Notes: a model not told the origin generated them from the letters alone. DNA of 64,000 nucleotides from an uncultured Gemmatimonadales bacterium (GCA_963741945.1 CAVUKA010000005.1:320001-384000); one strand, 5' to 3'; shown: positions 17,656 to 22,370, numbered from the stretch's first letter. Program-made: numbers and translations.

Positions 17656-19443
17656 TCAGCGGCCGCTCGCCGCTGACACCTCGCTCCCGGAGGCGTCCAC
17701 GGCCGTGATCCGTCCATCCACCAGCTCGATCACCAGGTCCGCCGTCTGCCTCAGCGCCGGCTGGTGCGATACCGCCAGGATCGTGACCTTCCCTTTCAGC
17801 CTGCGCAGTGTCTCCAGGATGCCCGCCTCGGTTCGGGTGTCGAGGCCCGTGGTCGCTTCGTCCAGCACCATCAGCGTGGGGCGCTTCACCAGCGCCCGCG
17901 CGATCGCAAGCCGCTGCCGCTGCCCCCCCGAAAGGTTGGAGCCCTGCGGGGAGATGAGCGCATCGATCCCGGCGGAGTTCCGCGCTACGAAATCCCACGC
18001 TCCCGCGTCGCGCAGCGCCTTCTCGACTCTCGCATCATCGATGGACTCATCCCCGAGGGTGATGTTGCGCCGGATCGTGTCATGGAAGAGGAACACTTCC
18101 TGCGGAACGTAGCCGATGCGGCTGCGCCAGGCGGTCAGATCCAGCTCCCCCAGGGCGATCCCGTCCACGAACACCTCACCGGCCTGCGGGCGCTGGAGCC
18201 CGGTGATCAGGTCCAGGATCGTGGTCTTCCCGCTTCCCGACTGACCGAGCAACGCCGTCATGCGCCCCGCCGGGATCACCATGTCCAGACCGTCCAACAC
18301 CTGAAGGTCATCGTAGGCGAAGTCCACCTGCTTCAGCTCGATCCGGTCCCGCAGACCGTCGATCCCCTTGTCGCCGGTGTGCGCTTCGGCCTCCCGCTCG
18401 GCCGCCTCGATCTGGTCCCGGAGCTGCCAGAACGCCCCCTCCCCGGTGGTCATCACCTGGTACTGCATCTGAAGGGTCCTGAAGTTCGTCATCAGGCGGT
18501 AGAAGATGAACGCCAGCACGATCACCGAGGAGAAGGAGCGGTCGGTCAGCATCAGGAGCCCGACCAGACCGGCCGTGAGGAACAGCGTGATGATCGGCTC
18601 CTGGAACAGGCGCAGCGATTCCGCGGCCACCACCCTCGCGCGCTGCGCCTCGTTCAGGCCCTGCGCCTCATCCTCCAGCAGGGGCCAGAACAGCTCCTCC
18701 CGCGCCATGGCCTTCATGGGCTTGATGCCCTGGAGGGCGTCCATGAGACGGCTCGTCAGGCTCCGCGTCAGCCGCGCCTGCTCCTTCCCCGCCGCCCGGC
18801 TCATGGCCACGAACCGCCGCAGCGCGATCACCAGCGTCACGCCCAGCACCAGCGCCACCACCGTCACCTGCCACGAGATGGCGGCCGAGATCAACAGGTA
18901 CACTGCGATCTGGGCAAACGACGCGATGACCGAGCACGCTTGCTGGTAGGCGGCAGCAGAGGCCACCGCCTCGCTGCTCACCCCAGCCGCGAACCGACCG
19001 ATCGGCTGGCTGCCGAAATAGTGCCAGCGGGCCCGGAGCACGGCGCGCACCAGCCGGAGCCTAAGGTCGAGCGTCACCCGCGCAACCGTGTAGCCCACTT
19101 CCCGCATCCCCAGCCAGATCAACACGGCCTTCAGCGTGATGGCCAGGACGATGAACGCGGCCAGCACCGGAAGGCTCGGCTGGAGCCCCAACGTGTGGAG
19201 ACCTTCCGCCATGAACTGACCAAGCCGCGAGTGCGGCCCCTGGCCGCGCCCGATGGCAACCTCCAGCAGAGGCAGCAACGCTACCACGCTGATCCCCTCT
19301 AGCATTCCCGCCAGGATCAGCAGCGCGATCATCACCGCGCTCCGAAGCTTGTACGCCCGGAAGAAGTAGAAGAAGAAGGACAGCCTTCCGTGGCGAGGCG
19401 TCTCCTCCATGGTTCCTGCGGATTTCACGGTGGAAACAGTCAC
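17656..19443 (-). CDS. ABC transporter permease/ATPase (PglK/MsbA-like lipid-linked glycan flippase)
   Basis: N-terminal TMD, Walker A GQSGSGKT, Q-loop YVPQ, LSGGQ signature, VLDEAT, SH. Start may be ATG 19410. Confidence 0.88.
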   Translation of the reverse strand: MTVSTVKSAGTMEETPRHGRLSFFFYFFRAYKLRSAVMIALLILAGMLEGISVVALLPLLEVAIGRGQGPHSRLGQFMAEGLHTLGLQPSLPVLAAFIVLAITLKAVLIWLGMREVGYTVARVTLDLRLRLVRAVLRARWHYFGSQPIGRFAAGVSSEAVASAAAYQQACSVIASFAQIAVYLLISAAISWQVTVVALVLGVTLVIALRRFVAMSRAAGKEQARLTRSLTSRLMDALQGIKPMKAMAREELFWPLLEDEAQGLNEAQRARVVAAESLRLFQEPIITLFLTAGLVGLLMLTDRSFSSVIVLAFIFYRLMTNFRTLQMQYQVMTTGEGAFWQLRDQIEAAEREAEAHTGDKGIDGLRDRIELKQVDFAYDDLQVLDGLDMVIPAGRMTALLGQSGSGKTTILDLITGLQRPQAGEVFVDGIALGELDLTAWRSRIGYVPQEVFLFHDTIRRNITLGDESIDDARVEKALRDAGAWDFVARNSAGIDALISPQGSNLSGGQRQRLAIARALVKRPTLMVLDEATTGLDTRTEAGILETLRRLKGKVTILAVSHQPALRQTADLVIELVDGRITAVDASGSEVSAASGR

Positions 19444-20041
19444 TCGCGCTCGTCGGCTTCAGGGGATGCGTAGTCGGCTTTGCGTATCGCCATAGTGCGA
19501 AACCGCGGAATCTTCACTGTTTCAACTTACCGCGCAGCAATGCCCAGCACCACCGGCCGACGGCATCGGCTCATGGCCGATGAGTCTCTTCGAATACCGC
19601 TGCGGAACACCCCAGCATGGATTGGATTGCAGAACGAGGGCCAGTATTCCATCTTTCAGCCTCCGCTGGCGCGCAGGGCTTCTCGCCGAGGTCGATCAAT
19701 GCACGTGATTGGTCGAGAATCCGCGTATGCCCATCGACTCCTGTTCAGGACCCATCAAGTCTGGAATGTGGTGCAATTGCCAACCGGCGGTTGCTGATCT
19801 CTTCCATGAACCCGCCCGGAGCTTTTGAGCCGCTTCCCAGTCCTAGTAGCCGGTGGTCTTCTCCCCAGAATTGAGTCCGGGCAGGGGCCCGTTTAGGAGC
19901 GTTATCTTCGCCTCGGACCCGGAGTCTCAGGAGAGTTGAAATGAGAAGGCCGCCCTCGGCTGGTCGCGGCGTCACCTAATATCAGGGCGCCAAGATGGTT
20001 GACCATTCACGGGCTCGAGGCCCAGATGCCGGAGGACGGCC

Positions 20042-21106
20042 ATGCTCACAGGTGTCGCGCTGTTTCCAAAGCTAACGATGGGGATGGACTTGGGCGATAG
20101 AGTCAGCCGGATCTGCGGGGTGGATGCCGGAGGGGACGTGGTCCGCGAGGAGTCGGTGGCGACGACGTGGCCGGCGGTGGAGGAGTACTTCGGCGCGCTA
20201 GGGGCATGCCGGGTGGTGATCGAGGTGGGCACGCATTCGCCGTGGGTGTGTTGGCTGCTGGAGCGGTTGGGGCATGAAGTGATCGTGGTGAATGCGGCGC
20301 TGGTGTACGGGAAGGGGCGGCGCAAGAAGCGCAATGACGCCATGGACGCGGAGTTTCTGGCGCGACAGGGGCGAGCGGACCCGAAGCTGCTACACCCGAT
20401 CCGCCACCGAGGGGTGCAGGCCCAGGAGCATCTGGCACTGATTCGGGCCCGGGATCAGCTGGTGTCGGCGCGAACGAAGCTGGTCAATCATGTGCGGGGA
20501 ACGGTGAAGCCGGTAGGGGGGCGCATCCAGGGGTGTTCGGCGGACGCGTTTGCCCGCAAGGCGGACAGCCAGATCCCGAGCGGACTGCGAGCGGCGCTGG
20601 CGCCGGTGCTTGAGATGATCGGAGCCCTGACGGCTCAGATTCGGGGCTACGACCGGGAGATCGAGCGTTTGGCCCGGGAGCGATACCCGGAGACCGCGCG
20701 ACTGCAGCAGGTTACGGGCGTGGGCCCGGTGACCTCGCTGGCCTACGTGCTCGTGGTGGAGGACGCCAACCGCTTCGACCGAAGCCGGGACGCGGGGGCG
20801 TACTTCGGACTGGTGCCGAAGCTGGACGAGAGTAGCGATTCGAGTCCGCAGCTGCGGATCACGAAAGCGGGAGACGAGCTCGGACGAAGACTCCTGGTGA
20901 ATGCGGCTCACTACATCCTGGGTCGCTTCGGACCGGACAGTGACTTACGCGCTCATGGGGAGCGGATCGCCGCCCGGGGAGGAAAGAACGCCAAGAAGCG
21001 AGCGGTGATTGCCGTGGCCAGAAAGCTCGCAGTCCTGCTCCACCACCTCTGGGTCACGGGGGTGAAGTATGACCCGCATTATTCCGCCCGGCGTAAGGCG
21101 GCGTAG
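20042..21106 (+). CDS. IS110-family DEDD recombinase/transposase
   Basis: RuvC-like GMD, IE and KRNDAMDA; GVGPV; YFGLVP-xxx-ESS (catalytic Ser region); R-ITK-x-G; AVARKL. RBS GGAGGA upstream. Confidence 0.95.
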   Translation: MLTGVALFPKLTMGMDLGDRVSRICGVDAGGDVVREESVATTWPAVEEYFGALGACRVVIEVGTHSPWVCWLLERLGHEVIVVNAALVYGKGRRKKRNDAMDAEFLARQGRADPKLLHPIRHRGVQAQEHLALIRARDQLVSARTKLVNHVRGTVKPVGGRIQGCSADAFARKADSQIPSGLRAALAPVLEMIGALTAQIRGYDREIERLARERYPETARLQQVTGVGPVTSLAYVLVVEDANRFDRSRDAGAYFGLVPKLDESSDSSPQLRITKAGDELGRRLLVNAAHYILGRFGPDSDLRAHGERIAARGGKNAKKRAVIAVARKLAVLLHHLWVTGVKYDPHYSARRKAA

Positions 21107-21159
21107 AACGAGTCCGTAGACGAGCACAGACAGGAGCATCAGCACTTCGCCCAGAGAAA

Positions 21160-21305
21160 CCGCGTCCCTGAGACTGCGTTCCGCGCCTTGACCGTGAGAG
21201 GTCGCCGCAGAGTTGGCAGCTCAGGAGCGGGAAACGGACACCAGCTGGCACCGGTGCACCCGAGCGTGCACCCTCGACGAGTGCGGATAGAAGGATGGTC
21301 CGATG
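21160..21305 (+). ncRNA. Predicted bridge RNA/seekRNA of the IS1111-type element (transcript ends unknown)
   Basis: Two stem-internal-loop modules whose loop strands match the target (TCCGCGCCT, AGAG) and the donor junction (CAGCT, ATAGAAG); details in findings. Confidence 0.75.
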
Positions 21306-21395
21306 GGCGAACGCAGGGCCGGTCGAGGACCGGCTGGGGCCACCACGTTGGCCCTTGACAGACAAGGCCTTCTCATAGAAGGCGCGGAGCGGCCC

Positions 21396-21508
21396 ATGAG
21401 ACGGAGTCGATTTTCGGAAGGGCAGATCGCCATGGCATTGCGCCAGGCGGAGGCGGGTACGCCGGTGGCAGAGATCTCCCGGAAGCTCGAGATCTCCGAG
21501 ACCACCCA
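21396..21508 (+). pseudogene. IS3-family transposase OrfA N-terminal fragment
   Basis: MRRSRFSEGQIAMALRQAEAGTPVAEISRKLEISETT is a typical OrfA HTH start. Similarity stops at the stop codon of the opposite-strand gene. Confidence 0.85.
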
Positions 21509-21509
21509 G

Positions 21510-22370
21510 CTACGGTCCGCTCACTTGGCCAAATGGGCAAGCGGCAAGAAGAGCCGTAGCCGTCTGTGCGAGTGTTCGCTGGTCAGGAATGTCGACGTGA
21601 TGCGCCGCGGCAATCAAATCTTTTCCTTCCGAGACGGGGGTCGATCGGTGGGTCATGCCGAGGGATTCGTAATAATCCTGAAACTTGACGCCATCGCCAG
21701 ATAACCGATCGGTGACAATGATGTGCCGGGCTGGTATCCCGTAAGCATGTGCTATTATTACGCCATGCAGCGAACTGGAGACGACGCATTCACAACTGGT
21801 TACGGCCTCCACGAAATCGTTGATTGAATACCGCACATCAATCAGTATCAGCCCAGCAAGGCCACGGATCATCTCCCGGACATCTCGAATCTCCGTATAA
21901 TGCGGAACGACGCCCACCCGGCCAGAACGCATGGTGATGGTTGCTTCCAGGAACCGAGGCAGCAAGATCGCGGGATCACCAAATACTGAGGGGCACTCGA
22001 TGGCGAAATCTCGGTAGCGATCGAACGTCCGCGGCCCCCGTACAGCTCGGATTTCCTGAGGTTGCTCGAGGTAGGAATCCGACGACATGATTCCTGAACC
22101 CCAAATAATGGAATCCCATTGGGCGCGATTCGCGATACTCCCCGCCGTGAGGTAAACACTTCGTACTGACCACCTTGAAGGCCAGACGTTGACGGGTTGC
22201 CTGCCCGTCATCACCCCGAACAGATATGGTCCTACTTGATCGCCTACGTTCATAAAGCTGTACGGCTCAGACCAGTGCATTCGGTTCCCAGGGCTTCGGC
22301 GTACGCTATCCAGCGCAGCTCTAATCGCCGGCTTGGCTCGTCTCCGCAGCGCCGTCAGGTCGAGGCGCAT
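21510..22370 (-). CDS. Polysaccharide pyruvyl transferase family protein
   Basis: Motifs NVGD, GSI, WGSG, AVRGP-x-T, GDPAIL, VPHY, SSSLHG-x-I-x-AHAYG, KFQDYY. Start uncertain. Confidence 0.88.
   Translation of the reverse strand: MRLDLTALRRRAKPAIRAALDSVRRSPGNRMHWSEPYSFMNVGDQVGPYLFGVMTGRQPVNVWPSRWSVRSVYLTAGSIANRAQWDSIIWGSGIMSSDSYLEQPQEIRAVRGPRTFDRYRDFAIECPSVFGDPAILLPRFLEATITMRSGRVGVVPHYTEIRDVREMIRGLAGLILIDVRYSINDFVEAVTSCECVVSSSLHGVIIAHAYGIPARHIIVTDRLSGDGVKFQDYYESLGMTHRSTPVSEGKDLIAAAHHVDIPDQRTLAQTATALLAACPFGQVSGP

Follow-up and report, generated by a model that had tools for sequence, protein, structure and literature searches.

A putative two-module guide RNA downstream of an IS1111-type transposase in a Gemmatimonadales bacterium, and its agreement with flanking DNA in related loci

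A stretch of 64,000 nucleotides from an uncultured Gemmatimonadales bacterium (GCA_963741945.1 CAVUKA010000005.1:320001-384000), referred to here in its full length as the window, contains a transposase gene of the IS110 family followed by a non-coding tail. An earlier description made without database searches (the sequence-only reading) had proposed a bridge RNA in this tail, with four guide segments matching the target and donor junctions of the element itself. The question raised by this locus is whether such short matches, one of them only four nucleotides (nt) long, reflect a guide RNA or chance. We conclude, with a probability of about 0.88, that positions 19936-21379 are a whole IS1111-type insertion sequence of the IS110 family with its guide RNA, located inside the left end of an older IS3-family element. 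What is said below of published systems draws on excerpts of PMC11187229, PMC11208160 and PMC11208158.

Guide segments in the window and in homologous loci

All coordinates and letters given in the sequence-only reading were present in the sequence, and the four proposed guide segments are listed in Table 1. Together with its neighbouring bases, the first guide, TCCGCGCCT, matches in 12 of 13 positions (21177-21189 against 21379-21391), and the AGAG identity of the second guide extends to 7 nt (21209-21215 equal to 19932-19938). The first of these strands (21180-21188) is complementary to the plus, tnp-sense strand and the other (21209-21212) to the minus strand. The 9-mer of the first guide occurs three times in the window, at the two paired sites and at one unrelated place, and is expected 2.3 times per 64 kb counting both strands; by our own arithmetic, its presence inside the 273-nt non-coding region has a chance of roughly 1 in 200. 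In the window alone, the four matches are suggestive but not compelling. It is the comparison of homologous loci that raises the guide matches above chance.

Relatives of the transposase were abundant in metagenomes, where at least 7,998 of 8,000 candidates matched at E ≤ 0.001. The best 120 shared 63-87% identity, the window's own protein excepted, and one of them carries the name 'IS110 family RNA-guided transposase [Longimicrobiales bacterium]'. Plasmid-borne relatives showed at most 31.7% identity at the 12 best places, and identity was below 60% in all 5,000 plasmid records kept. A scan of genome contigs with the single protein as query gave no relative, and an alignment query was required. 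With an alignment of 35 homologs as query, 80 loci on metagenome contigs and 80 on genome contigs were taken (49-64% protein identity), the latter from metagenome-assembled genomes (MAGs) labelled Gemmatimonadaceae, Acidobacteriaceae, Gaiellaceae, Rubrobacteraceae, Eremiobacterota, Planctomycetota and others. The non-coding tail was also used as a query in nhmmer, which matched at least 78 loci besides two copies of the window's own locus. Most of these alignments stopped at query positions 275-288, the proposed right end being position 273. In an alignment of 30 tails a constant scaffold was interrupted by variable segments precisely at the guide positions of the sequence-only reading.

The structure proposed in that reading was drawn on an alignment of 27 sequences and converted into a covariance model, R1. 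A model of the homologous 3' ends had been put forward there as a check on the proposal. R1 had a single match in the window, which was also its only match in the whole genome, and it recovered the same RNA in 92 of 99 and 61 of 61 closer homologous loci (153 of 160), in every case downstream of the gene and in its orientation. In five more distant loci (L003, L004, L005, L007 and L008) no match was obtained.

Among 156 R1 matches, 103 had both subterminal repeats and enough flanking DNA, and 91 of these had AG at both expected core places. The flanks of the 91 loci are all distinct, and the loci hold 80 distinct first guides. An exact-core measure undercounted, as some subgroups lack core pairing, and the longest common substring and then a model-based parse were used. 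Compared with its own right flank, guide 1 had a median longest match of 8 nt; matches of 8 nt or more were found in 48 of the 91 loci versus 21 of 8,134 mismatched pairs. For guide 2 and its own left flank plus core the median was 6 nt, with 6 nt or more in 56 of 91 loci versus 186 of 8,134 mismatched pairs. In the donor module, the 7-mer of the 3' strand was identical to the right end plus core of the same locus in 89 of 91 cases (ATGGAAG 62, ATAGAAG 24, ATAAGAG 2, ATGGCAG 1). The donor 5' strand formed Watson-Crick pairs with left-end positions 4, 5, 6 and 7 in 73, 72, 63 and 59 of 76 loci, compared to 96%, 83%, 56% and 56% with the ends of other loci. Its partner at the core G was paired in 56 of 76 loci and at the core A in 18 (unpaired in 58), and position 3 was mismatched in 55 of 76. 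Because the core A and position 3 are usually unpaired, the window's own donor 5' strand, with five pairs including one G-T, matches better than most.

The four guide segments therefore track the flanks and ends of their own loci when judged by mismatched-pair controls. A parse by sequence anchors, independent of R1, gave the same picture in 70 of 174 loci. The sequence-only reading had held that it should be given up if loops and targets did not covary among homologs; such covariation was seen in the 91 loci. Concerning the left-end guide, the pairing with the left end was borne out, while the T that had been placed opposite the first core base proved to be a minority state.

In IS621, each 3' guide has two bases next to it that pair with the other DNA partner once the strands have been exchanged, and pairing with their own partner has to be avoided (PMC11208158). 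Both loops of the RNA described here carry positions that behave like these handshake bases. In the 3' strand of the target loop, the two bases after the core were identical to the left end of the element in 77 and 90 of 91 loci, and to the uninterrupted target in only 21 and 13. They also follow the variants of the left end, with AT in both places in 67 loci and TT in both in 7. In the donor loop, the 3'-strand base that follows the core agreed with the opening base of the right flank in 61 of 91 loci versus 35% for the flanks of other loci (reached by 0 of 10,000 permutations); it agreed with the left end of the element itself in 2 of the 91. The corresponding letters of the window are TTG at 21213-21215 and G at 21294. 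In three of the four papers returned by a literature search combining 'IS1111' and 'handshake', no passage linking handshake guides to IS1111-type elements was found; the supplements of the 2024 papers may cover the point.

Further insertions were found in a MAG and in public sequencing runs. A Gemmatimonadaceae MAG (locus L100, 62% protein identity) holds the two guides of the window and the same ten bases on the right side. Three public runs (X2-X4, two of which resemble one data set) yielded a contig of 1,454 nt that corresponds to 19932-21385 with 140 differences (90% identity); it ends 4 nt and 6 nt outside the element, and overlapping contigs continue into unlike sequence. In a fourth run (X1), a contig identical to 21101-21389 diverges after 21389, which gives a second context. 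Since the contig ends and the divergence lie at these places, different insertion sites share the element-adjacent bases that are matched by the guides. In the contigs of the four DNA runs neither an emptied site nor a circle junction was found, and these runs did not cover the window outside 19932-21389.

Two observations were made beside these comparisons. The 90% relative in X2-X4 had a higher depth than its neighbours and several different neighbours, which suggests that it is multi-copy in those samples. The targets of the closest relatives (L018, L019, L098, L100, L101 and L102) and of the window (19920-21395) look like short tandem arrays in which GGAG or CAGAG returns at intervals of about 9 bp, and left flank plus core is thereby similar to the right flank; an identical left flank (…GTTCACGCGG) is found in L100 and L102.

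The element, its recombinase and its RNA

The positions of all features are given in Table 1. The ends of the element were compared with an uninterrupted paralogous site in the same genome (G000:C3:872261-872468), to which both window flanks align without a gap. In a side-by-side alignment this paralog holds a single AG where the window reads AG-element-AG, and it is this single AG that fixes the ends to the base, as 19936-21379 plus one AG. The ends and the AG core (CT on the other strand) of the sequence-only reading were thus confirmed by an empty site. In the locus alignments, conservation among homologs begins at AG+(T/A)T on the left and ends at ...CAT(A/G)GA-AG on the right.

Table 1. 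Positions of the element, its host sequence, its gene and the parts of the candidate RNA in the window
Feature	Position	Strand	Remarks
Left target part, left end of IS3-family remnant	19853-19935	+	19934-19935 is the left AG core copy; 83% identity to C3:872261-872343 over 83 nt
IS1111-type element body, 1,444 bp	19936-21379	+	AG on either side; empty-site paralog
Left subterminal inverted repeat, ATGAGAAGGCC	19941-19951	+	11 nt, 100% complementary to 21366-21376
Transposase/recombinase, 354 residues	20042-21106	+	N-terminal DEDD (RuvC-like) domain; C-terminal domain with Ser264
Bridge/seek RNA gene, target module then donor module	21155-21306	+	Covariance model R1, 135.5 bits
Target-binding module	21167-21225	+	Closing stem 21167-21177/21216-21225, hairpin 21190-21203, two loop strands between
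Guide 1, 5' target-loop strand, TCCGCGCCT	21180-21188	+	Exact reverse complement of core plus right flank 21380-21388, 9/9
Guide 2, 3' target-loop strand	21209-21215	+	AG+AG is left flank plus core 19932-19935; TTG is 19936-19938
Donor-binding module	21235-21302	+	Basal stem 21235-21239/21298-21302, inner stem 21248-21252/21279-21284, variable hairpin 21253-21272
Guide 3, 5' donor strand, CAGCT	21242-21246	+	Pairs with core plus left end AGTTG 19934-19938, one G-T
Guide 4, 3' donor strand	21287-21294	+	ATAGA+AG is right end plus core 21375-21381; G 21294 is the first right-flank base 21382
Conserved hairpin (21337-21354), then TTGACA (21355-21360)	21337-21360	+	Between RNA and right repeat
Right subterminal inverted repeat, GGCCTTCTCAT	21366-21376	+	Pairs with 19941-19951
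Right target part	21380-21506	+	AG core copy 21380-21381, 14 nt, then 37 codons of IS3-family orfA (from 21396)

The subterminal repeats sit 5 nt (left) and 3 nt (right) inside the ends, and in 163 of 175 loci the 9-nt motif ATGAGAAGG was found ahead of the transposase gene with at most 2 mismatches. The non-coding stretches measure 273 nt on the 3' side of the stop codon versus 106 nt on the 5' side of the start. For the IS1111 group, inverted repeats 7-17 bp long that lie subterminally and leave short extensions at the termini (PMC11208160) and a longer non-coding region downstream of tnp (PMC11187229) are described, and both traits are present here, with repeats of 11 nt and the longer non-coding region after tnp.

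The sole long frame in the element encodes the transposase, which is full length compared to its homologs. It matches PF01548 (DEDD_Tnp_IS110, E 3.9e-16) and PF02371 (Transposase_20, E 1.7e-15), both of which pass their cut-offs, as well as the NCBIfam equivalog NF033542 'IS110 family RNA-guided transposase' with 201 bits (cut-off 140). Among solved structures it matched IS621 (8wt6, E 9.3e-07) and ISCro4 (9t56). In the alignment with IS621, S264 falls on the serine of E-S-G, E61 on the glutamate of I-E and D99/D102 on D-x-x-D; D16 was assigned by the homolog alignment and the Pfam match. All five residues (D16, E61, D99, D102 and S264) are unchanged across the 35 aligned homologs. These matches confirmed the identification as an IS110 recombinase made in the sequence-only reading. 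The motif GL-P----S(t)G reads GLVPKLDES-S, with the serine kept and the glycine replaced, hence S-S instead of S/T-G. The criterion for the IS1111 group further asks for 330-350 residues and a relation to the IS1111 transposase over its full length; the length here is 354.

In the target module of the RNA, CCTGAG/CTGC (21167-21177) stands opposite GCAG/CTCAGG (21216-21225), and the hairpin reads GACC-GTGAGA-GGTC (21190-21203); the basal stem of the donor module is formed by CGGAC (21235-21239) and GTCCG (21298-21302). The closing stem of the target loop appears in the minimum-energy fold of 21107-21379. Base pairs were counted in 92 distinct model-aligned sequences. The closing stem of the target loop (helix 3) had 93% of its cells paired, with 7 of 10 pairs changed on both sides, and the target-loop hairpin (helix 4) had 92%, with changes on both sides in 4 of 4 pairs. 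In the donor module, the inner stem was paired in 99% of cells (2 of 5 pairs changed on both sides) and the variable hairpin in 66% (7 of 7). Overall, 26 of 34 pairs had changed on both sides, none of 500 shuffles reached the observed values, and shifting the partners by 1-3 columns abolished the pairing signal. A plain MAFFT alignment ranked the helices in the same order. RNAalifold found only 16 pairs in that alignment because the variable hairpins are misaligned in it. The target stem and hairpin of the sequence-only reading are thus conserved. An Rfam scan of 19500-21900 with E up to 10 returned only a chance match to a Giardia snoRNA model (E 6.6) and no bridge RNA family.

Two loci had a second, weaker R1 match (L124:1436-1578, 41.3 bits, and L167:3565-3687, 27.3 bits). 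One of these second matches is located some 1 kb upstream of the transposase gene, the other immediately in front of the main RNA, and they may be solo or duplicated copies of the RNA.

The hairpin at 21337-21354 shows paired changes among 30 aligned loci, and the TTGACA behind it lies 19 nt from the right end. This could be the -35 region of a circle-junction promoter or a protein-binding site; judged by eye, the hexamer 17 nt downstream of TTGACA across the joined ends is a poor -10.

In the interrupted IS3-family remnant, the Pfam domain HTH_Tnp_1 covers only residues 2-37 of the orfA peptide, which is truncated after 37 codons. From 21396 on, the encoded peptide shares 89% identity with that of C3:872358-872468, and the similarity stops there. 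C3:872261-872520 represents a fuller, uninterrupted copy of the remnant that is one base off the 9-nt target of guide 1. An identity of 8 nt, CTCAGGAG, was noticed between the left flank (19926-19933) and the closing stem of the RNA, in its 3' strand (21220-21227); it did not recur in the other loci checked by eye, is probably due to chance and was rejected as meaningful. Upstream of the element lies a frame of 595 residues on the minus strand (17656-19443) carrying GQSGSGKT and LSGGQRQR, presumably the Walker A and signature motifs of ABC exporters.

Proposed working and rival explanations

In the mechanism that we propose, the transposase, with its DEDD domain and Ser264, would act together with an RNA of about 150 nt from the 273-nt tail, which is probably transcribed as the last part of the mRNA for the transposase. 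The first loop would hold the target, its 5' strand on one DNA strand (core plus right flank) and its 3' strand on the other (left flank plus core), and the second loop would hold the ends as they are joined in the excised circle, again with its two strands on opposite DNA strands. Strand exchange would take place at the AG/CT dinucleotide, and one or two post-core bases in each 3' loop strand, matching the other DNA partner, would favour it. Both the frame and the RNA scaffold are whole in this copy, and the pair may, as the sequence-only reading had it, be an intact, reprogrammable recombinase and RNA.

Several results weigh against this interpretation of the locus. In its stability, the fold of 21107-21379 does not stand out from shuffled sequences (z -0.66; 52 of 200 shuffles equally stable). 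The 4-nt AGAG match carries no weight alone, and the window's left guide consists of two flank bases and the core; a match of at most 4 nt was likewise found in 25 of 91 loci. The outer donor stem CGGAC/GTCCG of the sequence-only reading was not conserved across the clade, with 39% of its cells paired and 2 of 4 pairs changed on both sides, and seems to be displaced inwards in other members. The two outermost helices had 34% and 58% of their cells paired, with 2 of 2 pairs changed on both sides in each, and the alignment used for all pair counts was fitted to R1 and is hence biased towards the structure. The flank test excluded 53 of the 156 matches (no right repeat was found in 30 and no left repeat in 9, and the flanks were too short in 14), and the 12 of 103 loci without AG were left out. 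Counts of G:U versus A:C cells were uninformative on the folding strand in helices 3, 4 and 6 (35 versus 43), and at guide mismatches they did not indicate the strand either (27 versus 23 and 33 versus 18). A sigma-70-type promoter scan of the linear element found none, which fits the published view of a promoter formed in the circle (PMC11187229), and no RNA run holding the stretch was listed. Finally, the element is present in one copy in the genome of 4.09 Mb.

This single copy also bears on the idea that we are dealing with a stranded relic, which landed in a poorly matching site in a decaying IS3 remnant and became immobile. The left guide matches only AG and the core, the surrounding orfA is cut short, no RNA run is listed, and in a genome of the same genus (G001) no transposase match was found at E 1e-20 or better. 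However, a frame of full length with all catalytic residues kept, two perfect subterminal repeats and a right guide matching 9 of 9 are not what a relic would lead us to expect. The RNA of the window also has the top R1 score and an end-to-end match, a weak support because this RNA was among the sequences from which the model was built. Excision of IS1111-family elements needs the correct flanks (PMC11187229), and here these are present on the right side. On balance we regard a relic as unlikely. It is more improbable still that only the first module guides and that the donor-loop matches are repeated DNA motifs bound by protein. In its favour, the 82-nt seekRNA of ISEc11, without the second part, was sufficient for transposition (PMC11187229). 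Furthermore, the donor 3' strand has only four variants in 91 loci, so that few independent changes lie behind its agreement with the right end, and the donor 5' strand mostly leaves the core A unpaired and position 3 mismatched. Against such a restricted role stand the almost invariably paired inner stem and the hairpin of the second module, all of whose pairs have changed on both sides, which point to a folded strand, and the covariation of the donor 5' strand with left-end positions 5-7. A motif for an end-binding protein would not predict that the post-core donor base tracks the right flank, and donor-matching loops are contained in the bridge RNA predictions for IS1111 elements (Durrant 2024, PMC11208160).

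The uninformative strand counts and the missing RNA run would also suit a guide carried by single-stranded DNA, like the guide sequences of IS200/IS605, or by an RNA from the opposite strand. We consider this very improbable, as the transposase belongs to the same family as members that use seekRNAs. Characterised IS1111-family members make RNA from the same region downstream of tnp, their seekRNA co-purifies with the transposase, and the long form is taken to be co-transcribed with the tnp mRNA (PMC11187229). The top-strand match also comes first in the window, as it does in seekRNAs (PMC11187229). That the matches arose by chance in G+C-rich sequence and the fold was read into it by eye is barely conceivable. 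The unremarkable fold of the window, a 9-mer expected more than twice per window and a trivial AGAG are what chance would produce, but it was refuted by the conservation of the structure in 153 loci, by the covariation of guides and flanks in 91 loci against thousands of mismatched controls, and by the counts at the handshake-like positions. A whole element with its guide RNA is thus the reading that we retain.

Relation to known systems and meaning for the family

The closest described counterparts are the IS1111-family elements with seekRNAs (ISEc11, ISKpn4, ISPa11 and ISPst6; PMC11187229). In the excerpts of that paper they have subterminal repeats and a long non-coding stretch after tnp, and a long RNA of about 150 nt whose first 80 nt or so contain two short matches to both target strands, all as found here. 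In them, too, the top-strand match comes first, the target varies by element and the transposase has about 340-350 residues. Their seekRNAs occur in a long form of 145-170 nt and a short form of 70-100 nt (154 and 82 nt in ISEc11; PMC11187229); the RNA of the window (about 152 nt) and its first module (about 75 nt) are within these ranges. The placement of the RNA at the 3' end of IS1111-type elements in the sequence-only reading agrees with PMC11187229 and PMC11208160. The element differs from them in its S-S motif instead of S/T-G, and the identity figures given above refer to plasmid-borne relatives and not to the named elements. It also differs in that the second half of the RNA is here resolved as a covarying donor loop, while the role of the long form was left open in the excerpts of Siddiquee 2024 (PMC11187229).

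The likeness to IS621 (PMC11208160, PMC11208158; structures 8wt6-8wt9) concerns the RNA with two internal loops, 5' and 3' guides on opposite strands, and a two-base CT/AG core. The post-core bases of the 3' strands matching the other partner, and the DEDD domain with a serine motif, are further shared features. Unlike in IS621, the RNA follows the gene instead of preceding it, and the element has subterminal repeats of 11 nt compared to 2-3 bp. The protein similarity is confined to the C-terminal half, and the first core base mostly has no partner in the left-end guide. Seen from the minus strand, the element has the IS621 layout, with a target of the form (7 nt)-CT-(flank) and a first loop strand equal to left target plus CT; gene and RNA therefore point the other way relative to the core. 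A reversed order is reported for IS1111-type seekRNAs (PMC11187229), and the same order was found here. The donor site is a plain internal loop, while multi-loop donor sites are noted for many IS1111 members (PMC11208160).

Insertion of one mobile element into another is a further point of comparison. With IS4321/IS5075, to judge by the title of a paper of 2003 by Partridge and Hall, an IS1111-type element reportedly lands in the end of another mobile element. Here, in contrast, the host is an IS3-family remnant and the site lies 82 nt inside it.

RNA-guided IS110/IS1111 recombinases have been known since 2024 and are widely mined, and the NCBI models already use that name; the supplementary bridge RNA models and tables of Durrant 2024 may already cover this clade. 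We propose only tentatively, and at somewhat less than even odds, that the element represents a large uncharacterised environmental clade of IS1111 type, with an IS621-like RNA of two internal loops, a handshake rule in both loops, and with the first core base and the outermost left-end base systematically unpaired in the donor loop. Such a clade would comprise more than 150 loci, in MAGs assigned to Gemmatimonadota, Acidobacteriota, Eremiobacterota, Planctomycetota and Actinomycetota by their labels.

For the annotation of this genome, the reading accounts for the 1.4-kb insertion that splits the IS3 remnant. For the clade, it means that the bridge RNA can be read straight from the sequence and its target predicted to the base. 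The comparative set, with one scaffold in 153 loci and 80 first guides in 91 loci, supports the two-strand reading of both loops in IS1111-type elements, and suggests that the handshake positions, defined on IS621, also exist on the IS1111 side. If the proposal on the clade is true, the unpaired first core and left-end bases could bias the reaction towards insertion, and the clade would supply about 80 guide pairs that have been reprogrammed in nature on a common scaffold. The handshake mechanism would then be older than the split between IS110 and IS1111.

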